A stretch of 35,467 bases of DNA from assembly GCA_937915965.1 (NCBI GenBank), contig CALGHC010000490.1, positions 1 through 35,467 on the forward strand, in the 5' to 3' direction. The notes below the pieces were generated by a model that searched no databases, had not been told where the DNA came from, and was given only the letters and a program-made list of their open reading frames with translations. The number at the start of each line of letters is the position of its first letter. The stretch's first letter is position 1. The translations under genes and the position numbers were made by a program. Shown here in pieces: positions 2,257 to 32,491 of this stretch. The stretch is from an uncultured Myxococcales bacterium. Its GTDB lineage: Bacteria > Myxococcota_A > UBA9042.

Positions 2257-3117
2257 ATGGTGGTGCGCGTCGTCACGGGGTTGGTGCTCGCGCCGCTGGT
2301 CATCTGGCTGGTGCTCTTCTCGCCTCAATGGGCTGGGCTCCTCTTCTTTGGTCTCATCGCCTGGTTGGGCACCGACGAGCTGCTGCGGATGTGGCCCGAG
2401 AACGGTCGCCTCGGTCGCCTCCTCGGCTGTTTCGGGGCCGCCCTCGTCGCCGTCTGGCCGGCAATCGACGCAACGACCCTGCTGGCGATCTTCGCGCTGG
2501 TCCCCGTGCTGCTGCTCGCGGCGAGCCTGCTCGACGCGGACGATCTCGATGTCGCCGTCAAGCGGGCGACCAGCAGCGTGCTCGCGATCGGCTACGTCGG
2601 CCTGATGTGCGCGACCCTCGTCGCGATCTGGCAACTCGATGGTCCGATCGTCCCTGCTGGCGCTCCCCAACCCGCCGCCGCTGGGATCGGCCTGGGCAGC
2701 TATACGTTTGGCCGTGGCGCCGTCATGTTCCTGCTCGTCGCGGTCTTCTGTGGCGACACTGGCGCGTATTTCACTGGCCGGACCCTGGGCCGCCACAAGC
2801 TCTTCGCCGCCGTCAGCCCAAAGAAGACCGTCGAGGGCGCGATCGGTGGCCTCGTCGCCTCGACCTTCGGTGGCTGGGCCGCGGCATTGGTCGTCCTGCC
2901 GGCACTGGGCCACGTCGAGGCGCTCGCGATCGGCGGTTTGTGTGGCCTCGTTGGTCAGATCGGCGATCTCACCGAGTCGCTCTTCAAACGCGCCCACAAC
3001 ACCAAGGACAGCGGTCGCCTGCTTCCCGGTCACGGTGGCGTGCTCGATCGCCTCGACGGCGTCCTCTTCGCCGCCCCCGTGCTGTACGCTTGGTTGGTGT
3101 TGCTGCGGGTCGGTTGA
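2257..3117 (+). CDS. cdsA: Phosphatidate cytidylyltransferase (CDP-diglyceride synthase)
   Basis: Multi-TM protein with the CdsA signature SPKKTVEG ... SLFKRAHNTKDSGRLLPGHGGVLDRLD. GGAGGA at 2243-2248 lies 8 nt before the ATG. Confidence 0.93.
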   Translation: MVVRVVTGLVLAPLVIWLVLFSPQWAGLLFFGLIAWLGTDELLRMWPENGRLGRLLGCFGAALVAVWPAIDATTLLAIFALVPVLLLAASLLDADDLDVAVKRATSSVLAIGYVGLMCATLVAIWQLDGPIVPAGAPQPAAAGIGLGSYTFGRGAVMFLLVAVFCGDTGAYFTGRTLGRHKLFAAVSPKKTVEGAIGGLVASTFGGWAAALVVLPALGHVEALAIGGLCGLVGQIGDLTESLFKRAHNTKDSGRLLPGHGGVLDRLDGVLFAAPVLYAWLVLLRVG

Positions 3118-3123
3118 TCGGCC

Positions 3124-3936
3124 GTGGCACCGAAGCCCGATGAATCGCGGGCACCCAAGCCCGATGCGCCTACGCCTGACGAACCGGGAGAAGCGCGAAC
3201 GCCAGCGCCTGCCGTTGGGCTGCTCAGCGGGCTGCCCTGCACCTTCTCTGGTCGGCTCGACTTTGCTGAAGCCACCGCCCGCAACGCCGCGATGGTCGCG
3301 GCGGTTGCCGCCGGCGCCAGCGGCTCCGTGCTGCTCTTCGAGCCCGCCGCGCCGGTCTTCACCCTCGGCCGGCGTGCCCGCGAAGGCGCCGATCGTGCCG
3401 CCCTCGCCGCCACGGTGGCCCTGTGCGCCGCGCGCGGCATCGACATCCTCGAGGTCGACCGCGGCGGCTTGGGGACGCTTCATCTGCCAGGCCAGCTGGT
3501 TGTCTTCGTCGCGGTGCCCTGCGGTCGCGCCCAGATCGCCGCTCTGGTCGACGAGCTGCTCGCCACCGCCCAGCGAACCGCCGCGGCGCTGGGCGTCCCC
3601 TCGGTCGTCGGCGCAGAGGACCGAATCGGCCTGTGGCATCCGACCGGCAAACTCGCCAGCATTGGACTGCGGCACGCCATCGGGGTTGCCCGCCACGGGC
3701 TGGCACTCGGCGTCGACCTGCCGGCGGCGGCAAGCGATGGCCTCCTGTTGTGTGGGCTGCCCGACGCCCATCTCACCTCGGTCGCTGCCTGTCTCGGCGC
3801 GAGATCGCCGCTTTCAGTCGCGGCGCTGGCAGCCCGATTTGCGGCCGAAGCGGGCCTCGTCGTCATGCTGCCCCACGGTGGCCCGTTCCCGCCCGCTCTC
3901 GCGCCGGCGCGCCCCTCGCCCCGGCCCAAGCGATGA
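3124..3936 (+). CDS. lipB: Octanoyltransferase (lipoyl(octanoyl) transferase), divergent LipB family
   Basis: Aligns by eye to E. coli LipB blocks. FEPAAPVFTLGRR matches HYPVFTQG. VDRGGLGTLHLPGQLVVF matches SDRGGQVTYHGPGQ. GKLASIGLR carries the catalytic Lys block, HGLALGVDL follows, and LLCG carries the catalytic Cys block. GTG start at 3124. The N-terminus is a low-complexity APKPD repeat. Confidence 0.72.
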   Translation: MAPKPDESRAPKPDAPTPDEPGEARTPAPAVGLLSGLPCTFSGRLDFAEATARNAAMVAAVAAGASGSVLLFEPAAPVFTLGRRAREGADRAALAATVALCAARGIDILEVDRGGLGTLHLPGQLVVFVAVPCGRAQIAALVDELLATAQRTAAALGVPSVVGAEDRIGLWHPTGKLASIGLRHAIGVARHGLALGVDLPAAASDGLLLCGLPDAHLTSVAACLGARSPLSVAALAARFAAEAGLVVMLPHGGPFPPALAPARPSPRPKR

Positions 3937-3948
3937 ATGAACAACTGC

Positions 3949-3977
3949 TTGCCTTGCAGTGCTTGCTTTGCTACCGT
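3949..3977 (+). promoter_or_regulatory. Possible sigma-70-like promoter for the giant gene (TTGCCT-17 nt-TACCGT)
   Basis: ttgcct at 3949-3954, a 17-nt spacer, then taccgt at 3972-3977, in the only lower-GC stretch between lipB and the giant CDS. Pattern match only. Confidence 0.2.
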
Positions 3978-4188
3978 CTGCTGTCTGAGGACTACCAGCG
4001 TCCGCCCCCCCAATGACGCTGGTGATCAAAGTGTTCCGAGTCGAGGCAAGGGTATGTGCCGCTCCTCCCCGGTCGTTCCCACGCCTGAGACGGTAGACGC
4101 GGACTGGTTGTCGGTTCGAAATGGCGCCGCGATCCCCTGCACTGCGTCGAAACGATGGCCCGGAAGGCCAACGGGTCATTCGTTCGTT

Positions 4189-4194
4189 AGGAGG
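4189..4194 (+). promoter_or_regulatory. Shine-Dalgarno AGGAGG for the giant lipoprotein gene
   Basis: aggagg at 4189-4194, 6 nt upstream of ATG 4201. ATG 4195 abuts the SD and is less likely. Confidence 0.65.
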
Positions 4195-4200
4195 ATGGGT

Positions 4201-7200
4201 ATGCGGAACGAGCACCTCACTCGCGCGCTCCGCGTTGCGTTGGTTCTCTTTGCCTTCGTAGCAGCGAGCTGCGCAGAGCAAGAACCCGACGCAGCGTCTC
4301 CAGGACTGTTGACGGACTACGCCGCCGGCGTCGATGCCGAGTTCGGCGTCGAAGCCTTCGCGCTTGGTTCACCAGCGCTGGGTGTCAGCAATCCGGGTCC
4401 TTTGGCCTTGTTCCCGATCGAATCGGGCGGCTCGGCCAACATCGACTTCGAGTTCACCGTCGACAGCTTCTCGCTCGGCAAGGTGAACTGCTACCTCGAT
4501 GGCGTCGCGGTTGGCTCGAGCAAGACCTCGCCGTACACCTTTGTCGCCGTGACGCTGGGCGTGCATACGCTCGGTTGCGTCCTCGCCGATGATGGTGGCA
4601 CCGAGCTGGTCAACGCCGAGGCGCGGGCCGTGGTTCAGGTCAAGGTGGTCGCCCCGTGCGCCGTGCCGAGCGACTGCGACGACGGCAACGCCTGTTCCCA
4701 GGAAGGCTGCACCGACGGCGAATGCACCTACAACATCGTCGGCACCTGCTGTGGTTCAAAGTTCGACTGCTCGGCGGGCGAGCTGTGCCTTGAGGCCAAC
4801 ACGCTCGACGCGCAGTGCTCGACCTGCGTGGGCGACCTCGACTGCGACGACGAAGAGAGCTGCACCACCGACAAATGCGACCTCAGCGGCGAGAAGGGCG
4901 TCTGCTCCAACAAGAAGTCCAACCCCGAGTGCTGCTCGACGGCGGGCGATCCTTGTGACGACACGCTCAGCTGCACGATCGACTCCTGCAACGTCCTCGA
5001 CGGCGTGTGCGAGCACGTCAAGCCCGAGGGCGCGTGCTGCACCGCGGCCGAGTGCGTCTCCGGCGACACCTGCAAGGTCGGCGACTGCGTCGACAACGAG
5101 TGCCGCTACGGCCCCGACAACTCGAAGCCGGACTGCTGTTCCGCGCAGAGCAACCCAGACTGCGACGACGACTACTACTGTTCGCTCGACTACTGCGATC
5201 AGCCCCAAGCCGGTGGTTGGACCCAGTGCCGCCACGAGGCCGACCCCGACAAGCCGATCTGCTGCGACATCACCAAGCCCGTCGGCGAGTGCGTCGACGG
5301 CGAGGCCTGCACCTTCGACTTCTGCGAGAACTGGGAGTGCTACCACCAGCAGGTCGAGGAATGCTGCACGGCCAACGAACAGTGCGACGACGCCAAGTTC
5401 TGCACCGATGACCTGTGCGCGCTGGCTCCAGATGCCGTGGAGGGCGACACGGGCTCGTGCCTGCACGAATGGCAGCCCGGCTGCTGCATGGACACCCCTG
5501 ACTGCGACGACGGCAAGTTCTGTACGTTGCAGAGCTGCCAACCGGGCACGTTCACCTGCGTCTACGGCAAGCCCGACGCCACGTGCTGTGACGACGTCAG
5601 CGAGTGTGATGACGGCAAGTTCTGCACGGCCAAAGCCTGCGTGAACCACAGCTGCGTCTTTGGACAGGACAACTTCAAGCCCGGTTGCTGCGATGACGTC
5701 GCGGATTGCGACGACGACAACGCTTGCACCATCGACACCTGCGACAACGAGACCACCCAGTGCGTTCACATCGACGTCGAGGACGCGGAGTGCTGCAACA
5801 CCGCGCTCGACTGCGATGACGGCGACTGCACCACCGACGACTTCTGCGACGCCAGCGACAAGTGCGTCTACAAGCCCTCCCTGGGCAAGTGCGCCGAGGC
5901 GACCGCCGCGATCGACTGCGACGACGGCGTCCCCTGCACGATCGACGCCTGCGTGGTTGTCGACGGTTGCGGCACCTGCCAGTACGCCAGCGACCCGACC
6001 TGCTGCGACGGCGACATCGACTGCGATGACGACAAGGTGTGCACCACCGATGTCTGCACGGACAACGTCTGCAGCCACGACGGCACCGCGGACTGCTGCC
6101 TGGACGACCAGGACGCCCTGACCGCTTGCGACGACAACAACGCATGCACCACGGAGTACTGCGTCAACAACACCTGCCGGCACACGGCTCCCGCCGGCGG
6201 CTGCTGCGCCAGCGTCGACGACTGCACGCCCGACGGCTGCTCGACGGCCTCTTGCAAGAACATTGTCAATGGCATCGGCGCATGTGAGTACGTGACCAAG
6301 GAAGATTGCACCTGTACGCAGTTGGACTACGCCACCGTCTGCGATGACAACAACCCGTGCACGGTCGAGGGCTGCTCGGACTTTGGTGATTGCCAGCACA
6401 GCGCCCTGGACGGCTGCTGCCTCGACAAGTTCGACTGCGACGATGGCGTGCCCTGCACGTACGACGCTTGCATCTTCAACGAGTGCCTGAACTACGAAGC
6501 CGCGGGCGGCGACGCGCCGCTGTGCTGCACCGTCGAGACCGAGGCGGTCGACTGCGCGTATCTCAACGCCGAATGCGCCAACGGCAAGTGCATCGAGCAG
6601 CCCGACGGCACGCGCGCTTGCGTCGCGGTCGAGAAGGCTACCTGCACCGTCGACATCGGCTACTGCCAGGACTTCGAGGGCGGCGACAGCCTCAAGGCGA
6701 TGGGCTGGAATCCGAACGACCTCGCAGGCTCGGCCTCGGGCAACTGGGGCCTCGGTACCGCCGGTGGCCTCGGCCCCGACCAGAACGCGCGCCTGACCTG
6801 GACGCCGACCAAGGTCAACTTCGACACCTGCCTGCAGTCTCCGGTCATCCAGGCGGCTGGCGCGGACACGGTGACGATCCAGTTCGACCGCGAGTTTGTG
6901 CTCAACGTGGGCGACCTCGACGCGATCTACGTGCTGGGCTCCCTCGACGGCGAGAACGTCGACTGGACCAACTCGCTGACCGTCGACATCGTTCCCAAGC
7001 CACAGAACTTCGGTCCCGAGACCTACGACCTGAAGCTGCCCTCCGAGCTGAGCGGCTCCAATGGCCTGCGCCTGGCGTTCTGCGCGGCCGGTCCGAGCAC
7101 CTTCAACCTCACGCGCTTCGCGGTCGACAACATCTGCGTCGTCAAGGGTACCGCGCCGACCTTCACCCAGTGCCCGGCCAACCAGACCGTCGAGGTGAAC

Positions 7201-10200
7201 CAGACGGCGCTGATCCCGATCAAGGCGCTCGACTCAGACATCGCCGATATCATTTCGTTCTCCCTGGTCAAGGCGCCGAGCTTCGTCAAGCTCACGTCGG
7301 CCCTGTACTTCTGGCTGGACGAGTCGTGGAACGCGAACCTGACGATCGCACCGGACGATCTGGCCCAGGTCGGCGAGCACGAGGTGACCATCAAGGTCTC
7401 GGACGGCTACCTCTACAAGCTGTGCACGTTCAAGGTCACCGTGACCTACCAGGGCGGCGTCCTCATCTGGAAGCCCTCCGAGGTCCCAGAGGGCAACGCG
7501 ACGCCGGTGAAGGAAGCGGTCATCGATCTCGGCAAGTTCGCCCAGATCGTCGACGACATCTCGCTGTACCCCGACCTCACCAAGTTCGACGCCGTGTTCG
7601 TGCTGCTTGGCGTCTATCCCTACAACCACGTGCTGGTCGAGGGCGAAGTCAACGGTCTGAAGCTCTATCTCGCCAAGGGCGGCAAGCTCTACATGGAAGG
7701 CGGCGAGACCTGGTTCTTCGATAACCCGACCACGCTGCACGCCTTCTTCAAGGTCACCGGCGACGTGGACGAGTCGCCGGCGGGCGTCACCGGGCCACTC
7801 GATGGCTACGCGGCCTACGCCGACGTCAACGTGACTCCGACCAAGCACTTCCAGTGGAACTACAGCCAGGACTTTGACTGGAACAACGCCAACGACCTCA
7901 TCAAGGCAAAGACGACCGTCCAGCGTACCCGCAAGATCCTGCAGTCCAGCGGTGGGCAGGTGTTCACGACTCAGGTGGGCCACGATGACCTGATCGCGAA
8001 GTACCGATCCATCGGCTCGTCGATCCTCTTTGGTGGTGTGCTTCCGGGCCCGCTCGACACGGCCGGCGACATGATGGAGCGGATCTTCTGGTTCTTCGAC
8101 AACGGTTTCGTCGATTGCACCAAGCACAGCGACTGCGACGATGGCAACGACTGCACCGACGACATCTGCCAGGACGGCGAGTGCAGCAGCGCCAACACCT
8201 GCCTGTGCCAGGGGCTGGCCGGGCCAGAGTGCAACGGCGCCGCGCTGACCAAGCTGATCACCAACGGCGGCGGCTCGACCGACGTCGTCGACAGCTACTC
8301 TTGCGATCCTGGCGTGTGGCTCGGCAAGGAGTCCGCGTTCGCCTACAAGAGCGACGACTCGCGCCAGGTTAGCGTCCAGCTCAGCAACATCTCGAACACC
8401 AACGCGCGGATCTTCATCCTGCGCGAAACCGAGAAGGGCTGCGACCCGACCAACTGCATCGTCTCCGGCAGCGACAGCGTCGACTTCACGGCCGTCGGTG
8501 GCGTGCAGTTCTACATCGTCGTCGACGTGCCCGGTCAGGCCGAGACTGCACAGTTCGACATGGCTCTGACGTGCGCCGACCCGGAGATCTGCGACAACGG
8601 CGTCGACGACAACGCCAACGGCCTGATCGACTGCGCTGACCTTGGCTCGTGCTGCGGCGACGCGGCCTGCGCCGAGACCTGCGACGGCATCGACGACGAC
8701 TGCGACGGCCAGGTCGACGAGGACTGCGACGACGACGGCGACCAGTTCTGCGACGCCTCGATGGTCGTGAAGGGTACGCCGGCGATCTGCGTCAAGGGCG
8801 GCGGCGACTGCGAGGACCTCGACGGCACGGTCAACCCGAGCTCGGTCGAGATCTGCCTCAACGGCAAGGACGACAACTGCAGCGGCAGCCCGGACGAAGA
8901 GAACGCTGACGGCTGCGTGCAGTACTACAGCGATCTGGACTCCGACGAGTACGGCACCGGCGCGCCGAAGTGCTTGTGCGCGCCCAGCGGCAGCTACAAG
9001 GCGCTCGCCGGCGGCGACTGCAACGACGCCAACAAGAACGTCAACCCGGGCACGACTGAGCAGTGCGACACCGAGGATGACGACAACTGCGACGGCTCGA
9101 ATAACGATCTCAACGCCGACGGCTGCAGCAACTTCTACACCGATCTAGACGACGACCTGTGGGGCACGACGCCGTTCAAGTGCATCTGCGTCGCGGACGG
9201 CGTCTTCAAGTCCGGCAAGCCGGGCGACTGCAACGAGTCGGACGCCAGCATCAACCCCGGCATGGCCGAGAGCTGCAACAACATCGACGACAACTGCAAT
9301 GGTCAGATCGATGAAGGCTGCGACGACGACGGCGACCTCTACTGCGACATCGATCCCGTCTATGCACCGCCGCCGGGCGGCGCGCCCGACATCTGCCCGA
9401 AGGGCCCAGGCGACACCGACGACACCGACCCGTCGATCAATCCCGAGGGAATCGAGATCTGCGACGGCCAGGACAACGACTCCAACGGCCAGGTCGACGA
9501 GGGCTGCGACGACGACAGCGACGGCTTCTGCGACACCGCCATGATCACCATCGGCACGCCGCCGTCCTGTCCCGGCGGCGGCGGCGACTGCAACGACACG
9601 GACGAGCTGGTCAACCCAGCGGTCAAGGAAGAGTGCAACACCGTCTACGACGACAACTGCAACGGATCAATCAACGATCTCAATGCCTTGAACTGCACCC
9701 CGTGGTTCCGCGATGCCGACATCGACCTGTGGGGCACCAGCGACAACAAGTGCCTGTGCTTCCCGGTCGGTCAGTACAGCGCGGTCAACCCCGGCGACTG
9801 CAACGACAGCGATCCGGTGATCAACCCGGCCGCGACCGAGATCTGCGACAACATCGACAACGACTGCGACGACCTGACTGACGAGGGCTGCGACGAGGAC
9901 GGTGACGAGTACTGCAACACCGAGATGGTCATCCTCGGCGTGCCGACCGTCTGTCCCAACGGCGCGGGCGACTGCAATGACAGCGACGCCACGGTCAACC
10001 CGTCGCGCATCGAGGTCTGCGCCAACGGCAAGGACGACAACTGCAACGGCACGCAGAACGATCAGGACGCCACCGGCTGTACCATCTACTACGTTGATGA
10101 GGACAGCGACACGTTCGGCACCACCTCGTCGAAGTGCTACTGCGAGCCTTTCGGTACGTTCAAGTCGACCAACAACGAGGACTGCGACGATGGCGTCGCG

Positions 10201-13200
10201 GCCGTCAACCCCGCGGCGCTCGAGATCTGCGACAACATCGACAACAACTGCGACGGCGTCATCGATGAGGGCTGCGACGACGACAACGACGACAACTGCG
10301 ACGCCTCGATGACGACGATCGGAACGCCGATTACGTGTCAGGGTGGCGGTGGCGACTGTGACGACAACGACGCAAGCATCTACAAGGCCAAGACGGCCGA
10401 GGTCTGCGACGACGTCGACGATGACTGCAACGGCGTGATCGACAATGGCTGCGACGACGATCAGGACGGCTTCTGCGACGCCAACCTGCTCGTGGCGGCG
10501 AAGACCCCATCGGTCTGCCCCAAGGGAGCCGGCGACTGCGATGACGTCAACGACGACGTCAACCCAGAGGCCGCCGAGGTCTGCGGCAACAACCTCGACG
10601 ACAACTGCAACGGCAGCCAGAACGACGAGGACGCGCTGGGTTGCAAGGCCTTCTTCTTCGACAGCGACGAGGACTTCTACGGTCTGAATCTCTCGAAGTG
10701 CCTGTGCGTGTCGGCCGGCGCCTTCACCGCCTCCCAGGGTGGCGACTGTGACGACATCGAGAAGACGATCAACCCCAACGCGGTCGAGGTCTGCGACGAC
10801 GTCGACAACAACTGCGACGGCGTGATCGACGAGCCCAACGCTGGGGGCTGCACGCCGCTGTACTACGACGGCGACGGCGACAGCTACGGCATCGACCTGA
10901 CCTCGTGCGTGTGCAAGCCGACGGTGCCCTACACAGCCACGATGAAGGGCGACTGCAACGACACCAACGCGGACATGAACCCCGGCGCCTCGGAGCTTTG
11001 CAACAACATCGACGACAACTGCGATACGCAGGTCGACGAGGGCTGCAACGACGACGGCGACAAGTTCTGCGACGCCGCGATGACGACGATCGGTCAGCCC
11101 GCGGTCTGCGCGCTGGGCGGCGGCGACTGCGACGACGAAGACGCGTCGATCAGCCCGATCGGCAACGAGGCGTGCAACGACAAGGACGACAACTGCAACG
11201 GCACCACCGACGAGGGCTGCGATGACGACCTCGACGGCTACTGCGACGCCAACCTGGCGACGACGGGCAACCCGGCGGCGTGCTCGAGCGGTGGCGGCGA
11301 CTGCAATGACCTCGACAACGCGATCAACCCCGGCAAGGACGAGATCTGCGGCAACACCGTCGACGAGAACTGCTCGGGTTCGGACAACGACGAGGACGCG
11401 GTCGGCTGCAAGGTCTTCTACGAGGACGGCGACCAGGACACGTGGGGCGCCGACGGCGGCGACTCGAAGTGCCTGTGCAAGGCCGAGGGCATCCTGGTCG
11501 GGACCAAGGACGGCGACTGCGACGACAACAACGAGCTCGTCTACAACGGCGCCGTCGAGATCTGTGACGGCATCGACAACAACTGCGAAGGCACCATCGA
11601 CGAGGGCTGCGACAACGACTCGGATGGCTACTGCGACTCGGCGATGACCACCATCGGTACGCCGCCGAGCTGCCCGTACGGTGGCGGCGACTGCGAAGAC
11701 GAGGACGAGGCGATCAACCCGGGCAGCAAGGAGATCTGCGCAACGCCGTATGACGACAACTGCGACGGCAACCTCAACGACGTCGGCGGCGACTCGTGCA
11801 CGACGTACTATTACGACAGCGACGGCGACGGTTGGGGCGTGGGCGTGACGCAGTGCCTGTGCGCACCGGACGGCAAGTTCACCGCCGACAAGTCGGGTGA
11901 CTGCGACGACACCGATGTGGGCACCAACCCGGCAGCGGCCGAGGTCTGCGGCGACGGCATCGACAACAACTGCAACGGCAACCCGAACGAGGTTGGTGCC
12001 GAGAACTGCTCGCAGTTCTTCAAGGACGGGGACAAGGACGGCTACGGCTTCGGCGCCTCGGTGTGCATGTGTGTGGCCTACGGCGAGTACATCGCCGCGA
12101 TCGGCGGCGACTGCAACGATGGCGACAACGGCGTCAACCCCGGTACGGACGAGCTGTGCGACGGCAAGGACAACAACTGCCTCGCCGGCATCGACGAGGA
12201 CTGCGACGGCGACGGCGACGACTGGTGCGCCGCCGACAAGCAGGTCGTCGGCAAGCCGCCGGTCTGCCCCAACGGCGGCGGCGACTGCAATGACCAGGTG
12301 CCGACCACCTACCCGCAGGCCGAGGAGATCTGCGACAACGTCGACAACAACTGCGACGACGTCACGGACGAGGCTTGTGACTCCGACAAGGATGGCTGGT
12401 GCGCGACCGGCAAGACGGTCATCAACAACCCGCCGGTCTGCGACGGCGGCGTCGATGACTGCAACGATCTCAACAGCCAGGTGTACCCGGGCAAGGTCGA
12501 GATCTGCGATGACATCGACAACAACTGCGACGGAGTCACCGACGAGGGCTGCGACGACGATGGCGACAACTACTGCGACCTGAACATGTTCCTCGCTGGC
12601 TTCCCGTCGACCTGCACGGCCGGCGGCGGCGACTGCGACGACACCAACGCGGTGGTCAACCCGGGCGCTCCCGAGATCTGCGACAGCCTCGACAACAACT
12701 GCTCTGCGGGCATCGACGAGGTCTGCAACGACGACGACGGTGACGGCTACTGCAAGGGCAGCGCGACGGTCAGCCCGGGCTGCCCCAAGGGCGGCGGCGA
12801 CTGCAACGACGGCAATCCGTTGATCAACCCCGGCCAGACGGAGGATTGCAACACCGAGTTCGACGACGACTGCAACGGGTCCCTCAACGAGTCCGGTGCG
12901 GCCAACTGTGTGACCTGGTACCAGGACGCGGACGTCGACGGCTACGGCACTGGCGCGGGCACCTGCCTGTGCTTCCAGAGCGGCAACCTGACGGCGGCGG
13001 CGCCGGGCGACTGCGACGACACCAACGGCAAGGTCAACCCGATGGCCACCGAGTACTGCGATGGCATCGACAACGACTGCCAGGGACTCGACAGCGGCTG
13101 CGACGACGACGGCGACAAGTACTGCGACGCCAACCTGCTCGTGAAGAAGGGCGCGACCTGCGTCAACTCGACCGTGCCCGGCGACGACTCGTCGATCCCC

Positions 13201-15903
13201 GGTGACGACTGCAATGACGAGAACGCAGCGTCGAAGCCCGGCGGCCTGGAGCTGTGTGACGACGTCGACAACAACTGCAACGGCATCGTCGACGAGGACT
13301 GCGACTCGGACAACGACAACTTCTGTGACGCCAGCGCCGAGCTGCTCTTCGGTAACTGCTGCGACGCGCACGTCGGTAAGGGCTGCACCGACGCGACCGT
13401 CCAGGCGTGCGTGTGCAATACGTATGCGACCTGCTGCAACACGGCGTGGGACGCTTCGTGCGCCCAGGCGGCCAGCGATCTGGGTTGCAGCACTTGCGAC
13501 TTCCCGTCGACCTGCACGGCGGGCGGAGCGGACTGCGACGACGACTCCAACTCGATCAACCCCGACGCGCTGGAGAACTGCAGCACGCCAGACGACGACA
13601 ACTGCAACGGTCTGACGGACGAGATCAACGCGGTGGGCTGCACGAAGTACTACTACGACAACGACGGCGACGGCTACGGCACGGCGCAGTTCGAGTGTCG
13701 CTGTGTCGCCAACGGCAAGTTCAACGCCACACAGGCTGGCGACTGCGACGACAACGATCCGACCTCGTACAGCGGTGCGGCGGCCGAGATCTGCGACGGC
13801 AAGGACAACAACTGCAACAGCGTCATCGATGAGGGCTGCGACGCCGACAAGGACGGCTACTGCGACGCCGGCCTGCAGGTGACCTCCAAGGTCGCGTGCC
13901 CCAGCACGACGATCACAGGCGGCAAGGGCGACGACTGCGACGACGCCGATCCGAAGGTCCATCCGGGCGCCAACGAGCTGTGTGACGGCGTCGACAATGG
14001 CTGCAACGGTCAGATCGACGAGAACTGCGACAAGGACGGCGACAAGTTCTGCGACTCGGCGTTGGTCACGGTCGGCACACCGCCGGTCTGCCCCTACGGC
14101 GGCGGCGACTGCAACGACAACGCCGCGGGCCAGAACCCCAACAGCCAGGAGATCTGTGACGGCAAGGACAACAACTGCAACAACGTCACCGATGAGCCAG
14201 GCGCGCTGGGCTGCTCGACGTACTTCTACGATGGCGACCAGGACGGCGTCGGTACGGCCTCGTGGTTGTGCCTGTGCACGGCCGACGGCTTCTACAACTC
14301 GACGAAGACCGACGACTGCGACGACACCTGCCCGACCTGCTACCCAGGCGCGACCGAGGTCTGCGATGGCAAGAACAACGACTGCGACGGCTACGTTGAC
14401 GAAGGTTGCAACAGCGACCCCGATGGCTACTGCACTTCGGCGATGGTGACCATTGGAACGCCTCCGGTCTGTCCGAAGGGCGGCGGTGACTGCAACGACC
14501 TCAATGGCTCGATCAACCCGGGCGCCATCGAGCTGTGCAACAACATCGACGAAAACTGCAACGGCAAGATCGACGAGGGCGCAGGCGACAGCTGCGACCT
14601 GCCAGCGGCGACCGCGACCTGCGTGGCCGGCCAGTGCCAGATCAAGGATTGCGCCGACTACTTCTACAACCTCAACAGCAACCACGCCGACGGCTGCGAG
14701 TGCAACGGCAACGACGTCTACGAGCCCAACGATACGTGCGGCACCGCGACGAACGACGCGATCCCCGCGCTGAGCGACAAGGCGCCGGGCGACTACACCA
14801 GCGTCTCGGGCATGGTCGTGACGACGCAGGATGAGGACTGGTTCCGCTTCCAGGCGACCGACACGGCCGATACGGGCGCCAGTGGCTGTGATCGCTTCAA
14901 CGTGCGGGTGCGCTTCTTGAGCAACCCGGGCAGCCTGGCCATGGAAGTCCACCGGGGCGCGTGCCCGACCGGCAGCAACACGCCGACGGTGTGCTGCGGT
15001 CAGACCGACTTCACCTGGTTCACCAACTTCGCGGGTGGCAAGGTGCCGTCAGCGGCGCATTCCGAGTACGGCGAGTGCCCGTGCACCACCGACAACGCCA
15101 AGTTCGACCAAAGCCAGACCGGCTGGAACTACGGCCCGTCGCAGGGTGGTCCGTATTGCAAGAAGTGGACGAACGGCAAGTGCATCCCGACCGGCTACGA
15201 CCAGACCTGGTGCAACAACGACTCTGCCGAGTTCTTCGTGCGCATCTACAACAAGACGGGCGCGGCGATCTGTGCCCCGTATCAGGTCGAATTCAGCAAC
15301 GGTGTCTACGGCGCGCCGACCACCCAGGGCTACAAGGTTGTCGCTGGCGACCTCAACCTCGCTAAGGGCGGCGGGTCGAACTTCTCGGGCGGTAGCCTGG
15401 TGAACTCGTCGGATGGCACCAAGCTCAACGGCTGGTACGGCAACGCCGGTCAGGCTTGGCAGCTGTGCTACAAGCGCTCGACTCACGGCTACAGCTCGTA
15501 CACCTTCCACAGCCTGTGCAACGGCAAGGGGCCGACCATCACGGTGGTGAGGTCGATCTACAACAGGCTCTTCGGCGGCTACAACGCGTCGTCCTGGTAC
15601 AACGGCTGCGGCTACAACAACAACGGTTCGAACTGGTTGTTCTCACTGACGAGCAACACCAAGCACACGGTCTACCGCTACCCGCAGTACGCGACCTACA
15701 ACTGCAGCCACTATGGACCGACGTTTGGCGGCGGCCACGACATGTACATGGATTCGTCGATGAACTACATGTACACCAACCTGGGCCACACCTATCAGTG
15801 CCAGCCGGGCCAGGGCTACGGTTCAAGCGCCTGCCGCAACTACCTTGCGGGTACGTACAGCGGCAATTACATCAGCGAGGTTGAGGTCTACTACAAGCAG
15901 TAG
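4201..15903 (+). CDS. Giant (~3,900 aa) secreted Cys/Asp-rich repeat lipoprotein. Order: Myxococcus-type Cys repeats, MAM-like, Ig-like and alpha/beta cassette, MopE-like metal-binding array, PPC, TLDc
   Basis: Uninterrupted ORF 3937..15903. Start placed at ATG 4201 for three reasons: the strong SD, the sequence MRNEHLTRALRVALVLFAFVAASC (a signal peptide with a lipobox-like AASC), and codons in 3937-4200 that frequently end in A/T, unlike the rest of the gene. See the sub-features. Confidence 0.9.
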   Translation: MRNEHLTRALRVALVLFAFVAASCAEQEPDAASPGLLTDYAAGVDAEFGVEAFALGSPALGVSNPGPLALFPIESGGSANIDFEFTVDSFSLGKVNCYLDGVAVGSSKTSPYTFVAVTLGVHTLGCVLADDGGTELVNAEARAVVQVKVVAPCAVPSDCDDGNACSQEGCTDGECTYNIVGTCCGSKFDCSAGELCLEANTLDAQCSTCVGDLDCDDEESCTTDKCDLSGEKGVCSNKKSNPECCSTAGDPCDDTLSCTIDSCNVLDGVCEHVKPEGACCTAAECVSGDTCKVGDCVDNECRYGPDNSKPDCCSAQSNPDCDDDYYCSLDYCDQPQAGGWTQCRHEADPDKPICCDITKPVGECVDGEACTFDFCENWECYHQQVEECCTANEQCDDAKFCTDDLCALAPDAVEGDTGSCLHEWQPGCCMDTPDCDDGKFCTLQSCQPGTFTCVYGKPDATCCDDVSECDDGKFCTAKACVNHSCVFGQDNFKPGCCDDVADCDDDNACTIDTCDNETTQCVHIDVEDAECCNTALDCDDGDCTTDDFCDASDKCVYKPSLGKCAEATAAIDCDDGVPCTIDACVVVDGCGTCQYASDPTCCDGDIDCDDDKVCTTDVCTDNVCSHDGTADCCLDDQDALTACDDNNACTTEYCVNNTCRHTAPAGGCCASVDDCTPDGCSTASCKNIVNGIGACEYVTKEDCTCTQLDYATVCDDNNPCTVEGCSDFGDCQHSALDGCCLDKFDCDDGVPCTYDACIFNECLNYEAAGGDAPLCCTVETEAVDCAYLNAECANGKCIEQPDGTRACVAVEKATCTVDIGYCQDFEGGDSLKAMGWNPNDLAGSASGNWGLGTAGGLGPDQNARLTWTPTKVNFDTCLQSPVIQAAGADTVTIQFDREFVLNVGDLDAIYVLGSLDGENVDWTNSLTVDIVPKPQNFGPETYDLKLPSELSGSNGLRLAFCAAGPSTFNLTRFAVDNICVVKGTAPTFTQCPANQTVEVNQTALIPIKALDSDIADIISFSLVKAPSFVKLTSALYFWLDESWNANLTIAPDDLAQVGEHEVTIKVSDGYLYKLCTFKVTVTYQGGVLIWKPSEVPEGNATPVKEAVIDLGKFAQIVDDISLYPDLTKFDAVFVLLGVYPYNHVLVEGEVNGLKLYLAKGGKLYMEGGETWFFDNPTTLHAFFKVTGDVDESPAGVTGPLDGYAAYADVNVTPTKHFQWNYSQDFDWNNANDLIKAKTTVQRTRKILQSSGGQVFTTQVGHDDLIAKYRSIGSSILFGGVLPGPLDTAGDMMERIFWFFDNGFVDCTKHSDCDDGNDCTDDICQDGECSSANTCLCQGLAGPECNGAALTKLITNGGGSTDVVDSYSCDPGVWLGKESAFAYKSDDSRQVSVQLSNISNTNARIFILRETEKGCDPTNCIVSGSDSVDFTAVGGVQFYIVVDVPGQAETAQFDMALTCADPEICDNGVDDNANGLIDCADLGSCCGDAACAETCDGIDDDCDGQVDEDCDDDGDQFCDASMVVKGTPAICVKGGGDCEDLDGTVNPSSVEICLNGKDDNCSGSPDEENADGCVQYYSDLDSDEYGTGAPKCLCAPSGSYKALAGGDCNDANKNVNPGTTEQCDTEDDDNCDGSNNDLNADGCSNFYTDLDDDLWGTTPFKCICVADGVFKSGKPGDCNESDASINPGMAESCNNIDDNCNGQIDEGCDDDGDLYCDIDPVYAPPPGGAPDICPKGPGDTDDTDPSINPEGIEICDGQDNDSNGQVDEGCDDDSDGFCDTAMITIGTPPSCPGGGGDCNDTDELVNPAVKEECNTVYDDNCNGSINDLNALNCTPWFRDADIDLWGTSDNKCLCFPVGQYSAVNPGDCNDSDPVINPAATEICDNIDNDCDDLTDEGCDEDGDEYCNTEMVILGVPTVCPNGAGDCNDSDATVNPSRIEVCANGKDDNCNGTQNDQDATGCTIYYVDEDSDTFGTTSSKCYCEPFGTFKSTNNEDCDDGVAAVNPAALEICDNIDNNCDGVIDEGCDDDNDDNCDASMTTIGTPITCQGGGGDCDDNDASIYKAKTAEVCDDVDDDCNGVIDNGCDDDQDGFCDANLLVAAKTPSVCPKGAGDCDDVNDDVNPEAAEVCGNNLDDNCNGSQNDEDALGCKAFFFDSDEDFYGLNLSKCLCVSAGAFTASQGGDCDDIEKTINPNAVEVCDDVDNNCDGVIDEPNAGGCTPLYYDGDGDSYGIDLTSCVCKPTVPYTATMKGDCNDTNADMNPGASELCNNIDDNCDTQVDEGCNDDGDKFCDAAMTTIGQPAVCALGGGDCDDEDASISPIGNEACNDKDDNCNGTTDEGCDDDLDGYCDANLATTGNPAACSSGGGDCNDLDNAINPGKDEICGNTVDENCSGSDNDEDAVGCKVFYEDGDQDTWGADGGDSKCLCKAEGILVGTKDGDCDDNNELVYNGAVEICDGIDNNCEGTIDEGCDNDSDGYCDSAMTTIGTPPSCPYGGGDCEDEDEAINPGSKEICATPYDDNCDGNLNDVGGDSCTTYYYDSDGDGWGVGVTQCLCAPDGKFTADKSGDCDDTDVGTNPAAAEVCGDGIDNNCNGNPNEVGAENCSQFFKDGDKDGYGFGASVCMCVAYGEYIAAIGGDCNDGDNGVNPGTDELCDGKDNNCLAGIDEDCDGDGDDWCAADKQVVGKPPVCPNGGGDCNDQVPTTYPQAEEICDNVDNNCDDVTDEACDSDKDGWCATGKTVINNPPVCDGGVDDCNDLNSQVYPGKVEICDDIDNNCDGVTDEGCDDDGDNYCDLNMFLAGFPSTCTAGGGDCDDTNAVVNPGAPEICDSLDNNCSAGIDEVCNDDDGDGYCKGSATVSPGCPKGGGDCNDGNPLINPGQTEDCNTEFDDDCNGSLNESGAANCVTWYQDADVDGYGTGAGTCLCFQSGNLTAAAPGDCDDTNGKVNPMATEYCDGIDNDCQGLDSGCDDDGDKYCDANLLVKKGATCVNSTVPGDDSSIPGDDCNDENAASKPGGLELCDDVDNNCNGIVDEDCDSDNDNFCDASAELLFGNCCDAHVGKGCTDATVQACVCNTYATCCNTAWDASCAQAASDLGCSTCDFPSTCTAGGADCDDDSNSINPDALENCSTPDDDNCNGLTDEINAVGCTKYYYDNDGDGYGTAQFECRCVANGKFNATQAGDCDDNDPTSYSGAAAEICDGKDNNCNSVIDEGCDADKDGYCDAGLQVTSKVACPSTTITGGKGDDCDDADPKVHPGANELCDGVDNGCNGQIDENCDKDGDKFCDSALVTVGTPPVCPYGGGDCNDNAAGQNPNSQEICDGKDNNCNNVTDEPGALGCSTYFYDGDQDGVGTASWLCLCTADGFYNSTKTDDCDDTCPTCYPGATEVCDGKNNDCDGYVDEGCNSDPDGYCTSAMVTIGTPPVCPKGGGDCNDLNGSINPGAIELCNNIDENCNGKIDEGAGDSCDLPAATATCVAGQCQIKDCADYFYNLNSNHADGCECNGNDVYEPNDTCGTATNDAIPALSDKAPGDYTSVSGMVVTTQDEDWFRFQATDTADTGASGCDRFNVRVRFLSNPGSLAMEVHRGACPTGSNTPTVCCGQTDFTWFTNFAGGKVPSAAHSEYGECPCTTDNAKFDQSQTGWNYGPSQGGPYCKKWTNGKCIPTGYDQTWCNNDSAEFFVRIYNKTGAAICAPYQVEFSNGVYGAPTTQGYKVVAGDLNLAKGGGSNFSGGSLVNSSDGTKLNGWYGNAGQAWQLCYKRSTHGYSSYTFHSLCNGKGPTITVVRSIYNRLFGGYNASSWYNGCGYNNNGSNWLFSLTSNTKHTVYRYPQYATYNCSHYGPTFGGGHDMYMDSSMNYMYTNLGHTYQCQPGQGYGSSACRNYLAGTYSGNYISEVEVYYKQ
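4651..6660 (+). repeat. About 19 tandem Myxococcus-type cysteine-rich repeats (CC-x3-5-DCDDGxxCTxDxCxxxxC; TIGR02232-like) inside the giant CDS
   Basis: Recurrent units such as CCDDVSECDDGKFCTAKACVNHSC, CCDDVADCDDDNACTIDTCDNETTQC and CCLDKFDCDDGVPCTYDACIFNEC. One extra isolated copy lies at 8116-8210. Confidence 0.8.
6640..7150 (+). other. MAM-like / jelly-roll domain of the giant protein
   Basis: CTVDIGYCQDFEGGDSLKAMGWNPN ... LRLAFCAAGPSTFNLTRFAVDNICVV. This matches the MAM pattern of C-x-F-E start and (I/F)A(I/V)D(D/N)I end. Assigned by eye. Confidence 0.4.
7153..7446 (+). other. Ig-like / cadherin-like domain of the giant protein
   Basis: APTFTQCPANQTVEVNQTALIPIKALDSDIADIISFSLVKAPSFVKL...HEVTIKVSDGYLYKLCTFKVTVT, typical of dystroglycan-type cadherin-like or putative Ig modules. 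Confidence 0.45.
7447..8112 (+). other. Unassigned ~220-aa Cys-free alpha/beta domain of the giant protein
   Basis: VLIWKPSEVPEG...FDAVFVLLGVYPYNHVLVEGEVNGLKLYLAKGGKLYMEGGETWFFD...MMERIFWFFDNG. Contains no Cys and no repeats. The strand-helix-GG-strand pattern recalls GATase1 / ThuA / DUF4159-type folds. Confidence 0.35.
8215..8575 (+). other. PPC-like beta-sandwich domain of the giant protein
   Basis: YSCDPGVWLGKESAFAYKSDDSRQVSVQLSNISNTNARIFILRE...GGVQFYIVVDVPGQAETAQFDMALTC. Confidence 0.35.
8578..14590 (+). repeat. Array of about 30 MopE-like putative metal-binding units (GDCxDxDxxxNPGxxExCDxxDNNCDGxxDEGC; PF11617-like), organised into 18 DEGCDDDGDxxCD super-modules
   Basis: 30 units were counted by eye (GGGDCEDLDGTVNPSSVEICLNGKDDNC ... 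GGGDCNDLNGSINPGAIELCNNIDENCNGKIDEG). 12 interleaved (Y/F)YxDxDxDxxG units are also present. Confidence 0.85.
14701..15300 (+). other. Bacterial pre-peptidase C-terminal (PPC, PF04151-like) domain with a Cys-containing insertion
   Basis: NGNDVYEPNDTCGTATNDAIPAL...DEDWFRFQATD...FNVRVRFLSNPGSLAMEVHRG...AEFFVRIYNKTGAAICAPYQVEFSNG. This shows the classic EPND, DxDW(F/Y)xF and Y-x-(V/L) end. Confidence 0.65.
15385..15900 (+). other. TLDc (TLD, PF07534-like) domain at the extreme C-terminus of the giant protein
   Basis: AWQLCYKRSTHGYSSYTFHSLCNGKGPTITVVRSIYNRLFGGYNASSWY...GSNWLFSLTSN...YGPTFGGGHDMYM. This matches the TLDc pattern W-x-L-x-Y-(R/K)-x-S-x-(D/H)-G-(F/Y)-S ... FH..C(D/N)GKGPT(L/I) ... FGGY ... 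(F/W)LFSL ... GP.FGGG.D(L/M). Confidence 0.7.
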
Positions 15904-15975
15904 GCGAGACCCGCCCGGGCTGCGAGACCAGCCCTGGCTACGAGATCAGCGAGGAGTACGAGACGACGCGGCCGG
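15904..15975. repeat. Degenerate 18-bp tandem repeat x4, starting at the first base after the giant-gene stop codon
   Basis: gcgagacccgcccgggct / gcgagaccagccctggct / acgagatcagcgaggagt / acgagacgacgcggccgg. The (g/a)cgaga(c/t)c core is conserved. Confidence 0.6.
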
Positions 15976-16004
15976 GGTCCATTGGACTCCGGCCGCTGTC
16001 GTCT
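15961..16004. terminator. Long GC-rich hairpin between the convergent giant gene and gatB; probable bidirectional terminator
   Basis: agacgacgcggccggggtcc (15961-15980) pairs with ggactccggccgctgtcgtct (15984-16004). That gives about 20 bp with one bulged T and one G-U pair, and a 3-nt loop. TTGT follows on the plus strand. It lies 58 nt after the giant-gene stop and 32 nt after the gatB stop. Confidence 0.6.
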
Positions 16005-31629: not shown

Positions 31630-32491
31630 TGCGGCTCGAGGGAGGCGGCAGCCCCTTCAGCCGGCGACGGCGAAGGAGGTGCATGATGTGTGTGTGATCG
31701 TCCTTGTAGTCGAAGCACAGCGCGTACAGGACGAGGTTGATCGCGAGGCGAAACGCCTGCTCGCGCTGCATCTCGCCGCCTGGCACGACGGGCAACGCGT
31801 AGCCGCCAGTGGCCGCCCGTTTGAATGCACCGGCGAGGTCGTTGCGTGTGTAGAGCACCGCGTAGTGCTTTCCAAGGCGCACCCCCTCAAGATTGTGGGC
31901 GTCGGCGCGGCGTCCATACGGGCGGGTGAGACGGTAGAAAGACCGGTAGACGACGTGGGTGTCGGGAACGGGTTCGAGTGGCCGAGAGAGGATGCGTTCG
32001 ACCTGAGCGCGCACGCCGACGTCAAAGTCGGACGACGGTCCACTGCGGCTTGTGTCGTCGATGATCAAGACGCCCCCCGTCGAGAGGTGCTGACGCAGCG
32101 CAGCGACGCCCTGGTCGCTGATCCGCGCCGGCGCCGCGTTGCCGCCCCAATAGAGCAATGGGTAGCGAAACAGGTTCGGGTCTTCGGGGCGGACGCTGGT
32201 AGCCCGCTGGGCGATGTCAACGCTTGTGCGCAGCCGAACTTCCTGTGCCCAGGAAGATAGGGCACCCGCGGAGCTCGGGCTGCTGCGGCCAATTTGAAGG
32301 CGTGCGATGCGGACCATCGACGGTGCGTCCGGCTCAGCGGCGTGGCCACGGGGCGCGAACGCCGTCCACACCAGCGCGAACAGGGCTGATAGCCACACTG
32401 CCCGTGGTGACGAGTTGTTGCCCCTCCCCAGCCCGCGTCGAAGTGGGGCTCGGCTGGGGGATGGAATCAGGCGGTGGCAAGCGCGGCGCAT
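31619..32491 (-). CDS. DUF4159 domain protein
   Basis: ARLQIG...WAQEVRLRTSVDI...PNLFRYPLLYWGGNAAPARISDQGVAALRQHLSTGGVLIIDD...HVVYRSFYRL...NDLAGAF...REQAFRLAINLVLYAL. This matches my recollection of PF13709. An N-terminal signal/TM (VWLSALFALVWTAFA) is present. Confidence 0.78.
   Translation of the reverse strand: MRRACHRLIPSPSRAPLRRGLGRGNNSSPRAVWLSALFALVWTAFAPRGHAAEPDAPSMVRIARLQIGRSSPSSAGALSSWAQEVRLRTSVDIAQRATSVRPEDPNLFRYPLLYWGGNAAPARISDQGVAALRQHLSTGGVLIIDDTSRSGPSSDFDVGVRAQVERILSRPLEPVPDTHVVYRSFYRLTRPYGRRADAHNLEGVRLGKHYAVLYTRNDLAGAFKRAATGGYALPVVPGGEMQREQAFRLAINLVLYALCFDYKDDHTHIMHLLRRRRLKGLPPPSSRNGR

Follow-up and report, generated by a model that had tools for sequence, protein, structure and literature searches.

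A giant lipoprotein gene with two cysteine-rich repeat arrays in an uncultured myxobacterium: a candidate surface fibre

Introduction

What use might a bacterium have for a single protein of 3,900 residues built in large part from small repeats rich in cysteine and aspartate? The question is raised by an 11.7-kb gene at positions 4201-15903 (+) of a contig of 35,467 nucleotides (CALGHC010000490.1; assembly GCA_937915965.1) from an uncultured Myxococcales bacterium; this whole stretch is what we call the window. Myxobacterial genomes often encode giant repeat proteins rich in Cys. An earlier, sequence-only reading of the window had described one uninterrupted gene for a lipoprotein of about 3,900 aa that resembled no characterised protein, and had proposed a surface fibre acting as an adhesin, a metal sink or a contact-dependent effector. 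The answer that we favour, with a probability of about one half, is a giant fibrillar adhesin or matrix-like protein, held at the cell surface by a lipid anchor and stiffened by Ca2+ and disulfides, whose function we infer. New in this picture are the chemistry of the stalk, the lipid anchor at the N-terminus, a conserved locus beside lgt and lspA, and a GIFT-like accessory domain.

A single gene for a modular protein

The open reading frame (ORF) at 4201-15903 is a genuine gene. Its forward frame is free of stop codons from 3937 to 15903, the 3,900 codons have G+C contents of 0.56, 0.46 and 0.91 at positions 1, 2 and 3, which is a coding signature, and the third-position content (GC3) is uniform along the intact frame. 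The encoded protein contains 353 Cys (9.1%), 563 Asp (14.4%), 10.9% Gly, 7.6% Asn and 28 His, and carries a net charge of roughly -570. Its parts follow one another as listed here, with window coordinates, strand, residues and the basis of each assignment.

4201..4272, +, signal peptide and lipobox, residues 1-24, MRNEHLTRALRVALVLFAFVAAS/C (translation; pattern inspection)
4273..4650, +, N-terminal beta-rich, Ig-like domain, residues 25-150 (weak match to Pfam Big_7; 30-51% identity within the family)
4651..6630, +, first putative rod of about 19 Cys-rich units of 33-35 aa, residues 151-810 (Pfam Dicty_CTDC; unit parse)
6631..7155, +, jelly-roll-type domain, choice-of-anchor-J-like, residues 811-985 (NCBIfam NF038128; 48-65% identity in the family)
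7156..7455, +, Ig/cadherin-like beta domain, residues 986-1085 (sequence pattern only; 43-66% identity in the family)
7456..8115, +, Cys-free alpha/beta domain, class I glutamine-amidotransferase-like or GIFT-like, residues 1086-1305 (AlphaFold2 and Foldseek)
8116..8235, +, single Dicty_CTDC-type Cys unit, residues 1306-1345 (DNA repeat families D9, D11 and D17 include 8116-8185)
8236..8595, +, beta-rich domain, earlier 'PPC-like' and here PPC1, residues 1346-1465 (30-54% identity within the family)
8596..14610, +, second putative rod of about 31 MopE-type modules, residues 1466-3470 (Pfam PF11617; module parse)
13318..13515, +, extra Cys-rich insert in one S-type linker, residues 3040-3105, NCCDAHVGKGCTDATVQACVCNTYATCCNTAWDASC...; NCCDAHVGKGCTDATVQACVCNTYATCCNTAWDASCAQAASDLGCSTC (module parse)
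14611..15315, +, Cys-bearing beta-sandwich, 'PPC2', residues 3471-3705 (family conservation; EPNDT and D-E-D-W motifs recall PPC)
15316..15903, +, linker, TLDc domain and stop codon, residues 3706-3900, with TLDc at about 3720-3898 (Pfam TLD)

A frame without stops that begins with a lipobox upholds the single lipoprotein gene of the sequence-only reading, and its order of parts also holds: two repeat arrays flank, or end in, globular domains, and both the MopE-type repeats (30 Pfam stretches) and the TLDc domain were recovered.

An uncharacterised family with a fixed domain order

A database query with the entire protein yielded about 43 collinear full-length relatives of 3,600-6,500 aa at 41-58% identity, and the earlier failure to match a characterised protein is borne out by their all being unnamed or 'hypothetical'. 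They come from metagenome-assembled genomes (MAGs) of Myxococcota or Deltaproteobacteria, and the GTDB genome matches are from lakes Baikal, Tanganyika and Mendota and from Swiss lakes. The N-terminal 1,470 residues and the C-terminal sandwich are collinear with about 40 homologues. Segment-wise BLASTP gives one fixed order for the family, namely N-terminal domain, CTDC array, jelly-roll, Ig-like domain, alpha/beta domain, (CTDC unit), beta-rich domain, MopE array and terminal sandwich. The architecture is a family trait and not a one-off, and no characterised protein has it. The sequence-only reading had conceded that it would fall if the same full domain order were known from a characterised family; the order was indeed found elsewhere, yet solely in an uncharacterised family, so that the objection carries half its weight.

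What varies is the distal half. Short forms have an uninterrupted MopE array, the lengths of these arrays differ, and long forms carry inserts of 400-1,850 aa that are absent from the window protein. Three lake relatives (P0004, 3,732 aa; P0002, 5,422 aa; P0010, 6,193 aa) share the domain order, lipobox included, whereas none of the lake relatives has a TLDc domain behind the terminal sandwich. The insert of P0002 contains a pair of beta-propeller-like domains together with a C-type lectin in which a TLDc domain is nested.

A predicted lipid anchor

The N-terminus of the giant protein has a basic n-region, a hydrophobic core and the sequence FVAAS/C, which by pattern inspection is a signal peptide ending in the bacterial lipobox [LVI][ASTVI][GAS]C at Cys24. 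A lipobox of the form [LVA][AST][GAS]C stands at the equivalent place in most homologues, and signal peptide and lipobox are kept across about 35 of them. On this pattern the protein would be a lipid-anchored lipoprotein. In Myxococcus xanthus, Lys at position +2 of a lipoprotein leads to retention in the inner membrane and Ala at +7 to release into the matrix (PMC3222651). The mature N-terminus CAEQEPD has neither residue and, as it fits neither the inner-membrane nor the matrix rule, would by analogy be of the outer-membrane type.

The first five residues, an unusual MRNQH (MRNEH in the window, 4201-4215), are kept in most family members (N-termini of P0002-P0043), even in those with a spacer of 25-60 aa before the hydrophobic region and lipobox. 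Either a motif of an extended signal peptide or a conserved region for the initiation of translation might explain it.

Two arrays of Cys-rich modules

The units of the first array follow the consensus CC-x5-DCDDG-x2-C-T-x-D-x-C-x4-C, and the array as a whole contains 111 Cys and has a net charge of -115. These repeats had been called 'Myxococcus-type'. Instead, residues 151-810 score 31.8 bits in six stretches against Dicty_CTDC (PF00526), above the gathering cut-off of 27; with the whole protein as query the score is 22.6 bits, under that cut-off. Matches to Dicty_CTDC are also precomputed for many homologues. TIGR02232, the model that the earlier label implied, gave no match among NCBIfam release 20.0 results (residues 151-810 at E<=1, the whole protein at E<=0.01), the presence of the model in that release not being independently confirmed. 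Sequence and profile searches of the PDB returned nothing for the CTDC array. At the DNA level its copies are 63-75% identical (repeat family D9).

The second array is far longer. PF11617 (Cu-binding_MopE) matches it in 30 stretches at 543.7 bits against a cut-off of 27. Two kinds of module make it up: an S module of 58 aa with six Cys, DCDD..(5)NPGA.E.CD..DNNCDG..DEGCDDD.DGYCD..M.T.G.PP.CP.GGG, and an L module of 69-70 aa, also with six Cys, that bears D-x-D-x-D-G-Y-G and reads ...DDNCNGS.N...A.GC...Y.D.D.D.YG.....C.C...G...A...G. The 2,005 residues include 197 Cys, 367 Asp and 2 His, with a net charge of about -390, and the DNA copies are 60-80% identical. One S-type linker measures 84 aa in place of the usual 34 because of a 66-aa Cys-rich insert (residues 3040-3105), which is common to nine relatives and matched by no Pfam or NCBIfam model. 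A search of the literature on PF11617 arrays in myxobacteria found nothing.

What might such modules do? As the number of Cys per module is even, three disulfides per MopE module are suggested and may be presumed; in the whole protein, too, the Cys other than that of the lipobox number 352, which is even. All 35 DxDxDG-like motifs of the protein lie inside the MopE array. This motif is an established structural Ca2+ site, and by analogy the Asp loops probably hold structural Ca2+. Tandem small modules of two families read as a putative stalk.

Matched against the PDB, the S and L profiles align with residues 17-45 of MopE*, the repeat as a whole corresponding to MopE* residues 12-46. The L profile also aligns with acyloxyacyl hydrolase (PDB 5w7a/5w7d, residues 51-79/192-220), at E values of 0.6-1.9 that fall below significance, and this enzyme may, on sequence grounds, be the only ordered solved example of the MopE motif. 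The stretch aligned at this sub-significant level is DCNDSDKTVYPG....D.NCNG.

The N-terminal domain and the central cassette

The domain ahead of the first array matches Pfam Big_7 weakly (E 3e-4, 21.7 bits, under the cut-off of 24.1). Between the arrays lies the Cys-poor cassette that had been described from the sequence, and residues 811-1305 are indeed such a cassette. Its first segment had been labelled 'MAM-like': no MAM (PF00629) match appears in Pfam at E<=1, while NF038128 covers the segment over profile positions 4-162 of 162 at E 3.9e-6, with 27.2 bits against a cut-off of 30. The Ig/cadherin-like segment has no match among Pfam and NCBIfam profiles, cadherin and He_PIG included. For PPC1, downstream of the single Cys unit, no profile match was obtained either, and Pfam PPC (PF04151) is absent at E<=1 from residues 1311-1480. 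PDB sequence and profile searches gave nothing for the jelly-roll, Ig-like and PPC1 segments.

More can be said of the alpha/beta domain, which had been put down as unknown. It has no Pfam match and no PDB sequence match. An AlphaFold2 model built on an alignment of 23 family members and remote homologues reached a predicted local distance difference test score (pLDDT) of 95.9 and a predicted template-modelling score (pTM) of 0.93. Foldseek against the PDB returned matches at E 1e-6 to 1e-5, with template-modelling (TM) scores of 0.5-0.6 and identities of 8-13%, the best being the IFT52 N-terminal domain and the oligosaccharyltransferase (OST) subunit Wbp1 (6ezn chain G), followed by beta-galactosidase trimerisation domains, ThuA-like proteins and HisH-type amidotransferases. 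From this model we confidently assign the domain to the class I amidotransferase-like or GIFT-like (ThuA-like) fold, in a non-catalytic form; the alpha/beta class given earlier was right, and the fold now has a predicted name. Class I glutamine amidotransferases use a Cys-His-Glu triad with the nucleophilic Cys after strand 4. In the window domain this place is held by the conserved motif Y-x-E-G-G-[DE]-T-W, and the domain cannot be an amidotransferase because it contains no Cys at all and hence no nucleophile.

IFT52 and Wbp1 are GIFT-domain proteins, and sugar binding has been proposed for GIFT domains (PMC7226087). The window domain shares with the GIFT proteins (IFT52, OST48/Wbp1, GldG), ThuA-like proteins and beta-galactosidase trimerisation domains a common fold and the lack of a catalytic Cys. 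It differs in its remote similarity (by the TM scores and identities given above), in having no Pfam sequence match, and in its extracytoplasmic setting within a giant repeat protein. It is also widespread: among 1.84 billion proteins a profile recovered 1,175 cluster representatives at E<=1e-3, with 763 of them still matching at E<=1e-10. No Pfam family covers the domain in ten sampled members, so that a common accessory domain outside Pfam, in these and in the window protein, now has a GIFT/amidotransferase-like identification. Its partners in the ten are Dicty_CTDC repeats, proprotein-convertase P-domains, dockerin and CBM96. Further examples come from Bacteroidales, in a C25-peptidase protein that ends in a sorting tail for type IX secretion (T9SS), and from Marinimicrobia, in an LVIVD/dockerin protein, and the pair of alpha/beta domain and one CTDC unit is kept in distant relatives. 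Such partners mark the domain as an accessory module of secreted multidomain proteins. Family members (P0098-P0237) are usually embedded in large secreted proteins.

A proposed surface fibre and its analogues

How would these parts work together? In the reading we favour, the precursor would be exported by Sec, Cys24 would be diacylglycerol-modified and the precursor cleaved by Lgt and LspA, both encoded just upstream, and the 352 remaining Cys would be oxidised in the periplasm. Sorting to the outer membrane and display on the cell surface would follow. The chain would then present two stiff, strongly acidic rods, of about 19 Dicty_CTDC-type units and then about 31 MopE-type modules; as a rough estimate by analogy with calcium-binding EGF (cbEGF)-type rods, the two arrays together could be some 100-200 nm long. 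These rods would position two ligand-binding stations, a central cassette of jelly-roll, Ig-like, non-catalytic GIFT/amidotransferase-like and beta-rich domains, and a distal tip made of the conserved beta-sandwich and, in the window protein only, TLDc. The targets would most likely be glycans or the surfaces of particles, prey or sibling cells: binding to glycans or surfaces is suggested by the lectin and propellers of relatives and by the dockerin, CBM and P-domain found alongside the alpha/beta domain. Of the functions offered by the sequence-only reading, the surface fibre or adhesin is the most economical, and the beta-propeller, C-type lectin and TLDc domains that relatives add distally agree with it.

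The closest general model is the fibrillar adhesin. Proteins of this kind, a class defined by Monzon et al., are recognised by a stalk, a terminal adhesive region, an anchor and a single chain, according to the part of PMC8286594 used here, and the window protein combines a stalk (two tandem arrays), an anchor motif (the lipobox) and a single long chain (one ORF). It further resembles them in setting globular domains distally on a stalk of small domains (PMC8286594). A Dicty_CTDC/MopE stalk and an N-terminal lipid anchor are not among the features named in that part of the source, the window protein has none of the adhesive domains catalogued there, and its own surface location is a prediction.

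Several points weigh against the fibre reading. All family members are uncharacterised and their function is read from sequence, and Pfam recognises no adhesive domain in the window protein. The PDB profile matches are limited to the disordered N-terminus of MopE* and to the sub-significant stretch of acyloxyacyl hydrolase, and as neither MopE nor CTDC modules have a solved structure, the 'rigid rod' and the 'Ca2+ binding' are argued by analogy. The AlphaFold2 model of the terminal sandwich (residues 3471-3705) is weak (pLDDT 60). The sorting rules of M. xanthus come from a distant relative. Finally, a disulfide-rich, folded lipoprotein of about 400 kDa would need a route of export across the outer membrane, and no secretion genes are adjacent.

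The modules themselves call to mind proteins of quite different organisms. Dictyostelium extracellular-matrix and spore-coat proteins with 24-residue Cys repeats (PF00526) are likewise tandem, disulfide-knotted and Asp-rich, whereas the window protein is bacterial and would be lipid-anchored. Fibrillin cbEGF and thrombospondin type 3 repeats are Ca2+-binding disulfide rods, and the likeness to them is by analogy only. One might go further and suppose that the family evolved, independently of eukaryotes, into a bacterial counterpart of their extracellular-matrix fibres, with S and L modules forming a new class of Ca2+-loaded, triple-disulfide rod and the lipid-anchored rod serving as a chassis for swapped distal cassettes (beta-propeller, C-type lectin, TLDc). 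This is speculative, and we think it rather unlikely; if true, an extracellular TLDc domain would act as a terminal ligand-binding or redox-active tip, giving a first functional handle on bacterial TLDc and also on the GIFT-like domain family (about 1,175 cluster representatives).

If the fibre reading is right, an uncultured freshwater Myxococcota lineage devotes 11-19 kb of a small genome to one surface protein, built from modules better known in slime-mould matrix and methanotroph surface proteins, which hints at planktonic attachment to particles, algae or prey. Current understanding is not overturned by such a family.

A possible role in cell-cell recognition

Could the protein serve kin rather than particles? 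The outer-membrane exchange receptor TraA of Myxococcus xanthus, about one-fifth as long as the window protein, sets a globular domain on a Cys-rich repeat stalk. On this model the giant protein would be a homotypic or kin-specific receptor, or a matrix component, of cell-cell recognition and cohesion, with the variable distal half setting specificity. We regard this as a doubtful alternative. TraA has the layout in question, a myxobacterial surface protein whose globular domains sit on a stalk rich in Cys (PMC12248028, PMC13184517), and distal architecture does differ among orthologues at one locus. That variation, however, is domain gain and loss between distant genomes (42-58% identity), not allelic hypervariability of one domain. 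TraA has TIGR02232-type repeats, a PA14-like variable domain and a MYXO-CTERM anchor (partly after PMC12248028), whereas Pfam and NCBIfam searches with the whole protein and its segments detected no PA14, MYXO-CTERM or TIGR02232, and the window protein would be anchored at its N-terminus. Its carriers, moreover, are planktonic lake MAGs, for which social behaviour would be an assumption.

The metal question

The Pfam name of the second array has an obvious implication, and PF11617 is habitually read as 'copper-binding'; that habit needs correcting here. MopE/CorA of methanotrophs (PDB 2VOV) shares with the window protein a motif of about 30 residues, DCND..(I/V)NPGA.E.C.G.D.NC.G. A place among the MopE/CorA copper-site proteins would call for a beta-core with a His/His/kynurenine Cu(I) site, and the window protein shows similarity to neither, its array being almost free of His. 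The crystal model of MopE* begins at Gly47, and its Cu(I) ligands are His132, His203 and Kyn130 (PMC3423442). Because the repeat corresponds to MopE* 12-46, outside the crystal model and the Cu(I) site, and because the array has only 2 His in 2,005 aa, a copper role is unsupported, as is a 'metal sink' in the copper sense of MopE.

In a wider form the idea is an envelope polyanion, that is, a buffer or store for cations (Ca2+, or Cu after the Pfam name) or a mineral-nucleating surface. The 563 Asp, the net charge of roughly -570 and the 30 copies of a motif named 'putative metal-binding' speak for it, as do the stabilisation of MopE* by CaCl2 (PMC3423442) and the structural Ca2+ site modelled in CorA by analogy to MopE* (PMC3912023). 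Set against this are the position of the repeat outside the Cu(I) site, the scarcity of His, and the absence from the array of conserved Trp or Met. A buffer would need neither conserved globular domains of binding type nor a lipid anchor, and the neighbouring genes are housekeeping genes with none for metal homeostasis. We therefore hold the polyanion to be quite improbable as the main role of the protein.

The terminal sandwich and the TLDc domain

In nearly all family members the sandwich that follows the MopE array stands at the very C-terminus, the chain stopping 8-12 residues beyond LExSNGxYG. The sequence-only reading had called it a canonical PPC domain and PPC1 a PPC-like one, and neither label is upheld by Pfam, whose PPC model (PF04151) matches neither segment at E<=1 (here residues 3461-3710). 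PDB searches by sequence and by family profile gave no match for the sandwich, and Foldseek with its mediocre model returned generic jelly-roll, P-domain and CUB sandwiches at non-significant values (best E>=8e-3), all of which leaves 'canonical PPC' unsupported.

In the window protein alone, this normally terminal sandwich is followed by a TLDc domain. PF07534 scores 76.0 bits with the whole protein and 82.8 bits with the segment, against a cut-off of 24.5 (E 4e-21 to 4e-23), and weak PDB matches to the TLDc domains of Skywalker, NCOA7 and mEAK-7 were found at E 1.5e-3 to 0.1. Membership of NF038124, the PEP-CTERM-anchored TLD proteins, was considered and rejected: the match, over profile positions 16-194 of 235, scores 84.5 bits against 100, and the C-terminus, ...VEVYYKQ, has no PEP-CTERM tail. 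The domain is appended directly after the retained ancestral tail, APTTQGY/KVV... standing where relatives have AP.H.GYSP*. Searching with the last 430 residues turned up no second database protein that spans the junction, the greatest coverage being 59%. In 11 relatives TLDc is present, always internally and upstream of the terminal sandwich. With this family, bacterial TLDc domains in an extracytoplasmic setting are documented; the literature yielded nothing on the function of bacterial TLDc.

Three side observations concern these ends. The C-termini of P0003-P0039 mostly finish, after the sandwich, on an aromatic residue in a short Gly-rich tail (...GKNW, ...SGW, ...SGF, ...KNY), an end that the appended TLDc buries in the window protein. 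In P0002, the closest orthologue (locus L030, residues ~4767-5060), TLDc is apparently nested in the C-type lectin: it is preceded by a stretch that matches positions 2-71 of the Lectin_C profile and followed by lectin-like sequence. Among the TLDc matches is a coral protein with Lectin_C, Ca-binding EGF and TLDc.

A variable C-terminal module behind a conserved domain, in a very large protein, is what a contact-dependent effector or polymorphic toxin with TLDc as its payload would look like. This version of the sequence-only reading is nonetheless far-fetched. TLDc is internal in the 11 relatives, and in one of them nested in a C-type lectin, and it is no known toxin fold. Neither Pfam nor NCBIfam finds a toxin, pre-toxin, Rhs/YD or CdiA-type domain, no immunity ORF lies downstream, where 132 nt lead to the convergent gatB, and no dedicated secretion partner is adjacent.

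Integrity of the assembly

An assembly artefact or a decaying gene, with the frame or the PPC2-TLDc end produced by collapsed or chimeric repeats of a short-read metagenome, could appeal to the contig being a metagenome scaffold, to the unique junction and to a near-identical second contig that is perhaps not independent, but it is hardly credible, given repeats too diverged to collapse (60-80%), an intact 11.7-kb frame of uniform GC3, collinearity with about 40 homologues both over the first 1,470 residues and in the C-terminal domain, and an ancestral tail (AP..GY) kept before TLDc.

The direct repeats in the gene are only 60-80% identical at the DNA level, which makes collapse unlikely; long near-identical copies were not found, and TRF reported only short GAC-rich tracts. 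A chimeric join is made less likely by what follows TLDc: the domain runs exactly to the stop codon, after which come an inverted repeat and the syntenic gatBAC genes, so that two breakpoints no more than 600 bp apart would be required. The second contig (35,465 bp) carries the giant gene with one mismatch in 17.7 kb and is weak independent support, since it may not be independent.

Start site, expression signals and neighbouring genes

The best start for the giant gene is ATG 4201, preferred because of the AGGAGG upstream, the MRNEH start like the MRNQH of homologues, and the signal peptide and lipobox. The 88 in-frame codons 5' of it offer nothing of this kind. The signals around the gene and the genes upstream are as follows.

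1-1131, +, lspA (window gene order)
1134-2249, +, lgt (window gene order)
2257-3117, +, cdsA (window gene order)
3124-3936, +, lipB-like gene, with the giant gene next (window gene order)
3947..3975, +, promoter-like box TTGCCT-N17-TACCGT, about 225 nt 5' of the start codon (sequence inspection)
4189..4194, +, ribosome-binding site AGGAGG, 6 bases 5' of the ATG and invariant in four aligned orthologue loci (sequence inspection)
15962..16003, no strand, imperfect GC-rich inverted repeat between the giant gene and convergent gatB (sequence inspection)

The TTGCCT-N17-TACCGT box is kept in the orthologous loci L001 and L002, while the remainder of the 264-nt spacer is poorly conserved; its conservation suggests that the giant gene is transcribed from a promoter of its own, with a long 5' leader. 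As a simple sigma-70 promoter scan did not call the box, its assignment as a promoter is tentative. Rfam gave no matches in the window, and so no known riboswitch or leader in the 264-nt spacer. The inverted repeat was not called by a terminator scan, a T-run being absent.

The upstream block is conserved with the gene. As lspA-lgt-(uppS)-cdsA-lipB it also lies 5' of the giant gene in P0002, P0004, P0010 and P0035, and the lspA-lgt block is linked to the giant gene in five genomes (loci L001, L002, L030, L031 and the window), even with differing downstream genes. In a second subgroup (P0013, P0024, P0040) the genes ahead of the giant gene are those for an M10 peptidase and a Ser/Thr kinase, along with a small ORF. 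Upstream of a P0013-type member, at one locus only (L003, 2135-4180), is a gene for a 681-aa protein with several thioredoxin/DsbA-like domains, a possible oxidative-folding helper for the giant protein. Downstream in the window, the minus strand carries gatB, 132 nt from the giant stop codon, then gatA, gatC, a mannose-1-phosphate guanylyltransferase-like gene, and genes for a CoA transferase, a HEAT-repeat protein and a DUF2330 protein. None of the genes adjacent to the giant gene is one for secretion, toxin immunity or metal homeostasis.

Two candidates were set aside. Horizontal transfer of the giant gene, to which its lower GC (0.64 vs 0.70) might point, is rejected because Asp, Asn and Cys codons with a GC3 of 0.91 explain the low value and synteny is conserved. 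An antisense ORF of 1,761 aa at 9667-14952 (-), opposite the MopE array, has a GC3 of 0.57 and is a shadow and no gene; it arises because the reverse complement of sense codons rich in GAC, TGC, AAC and GGC is free of stops. Further along the minus strand, at 29314-32491, a gene for a VWA/GATase1_like protein lies beside one for a DUF4159 protein, a pair that resembles a BatA-like operon and that appears unrelated to the giant gene.

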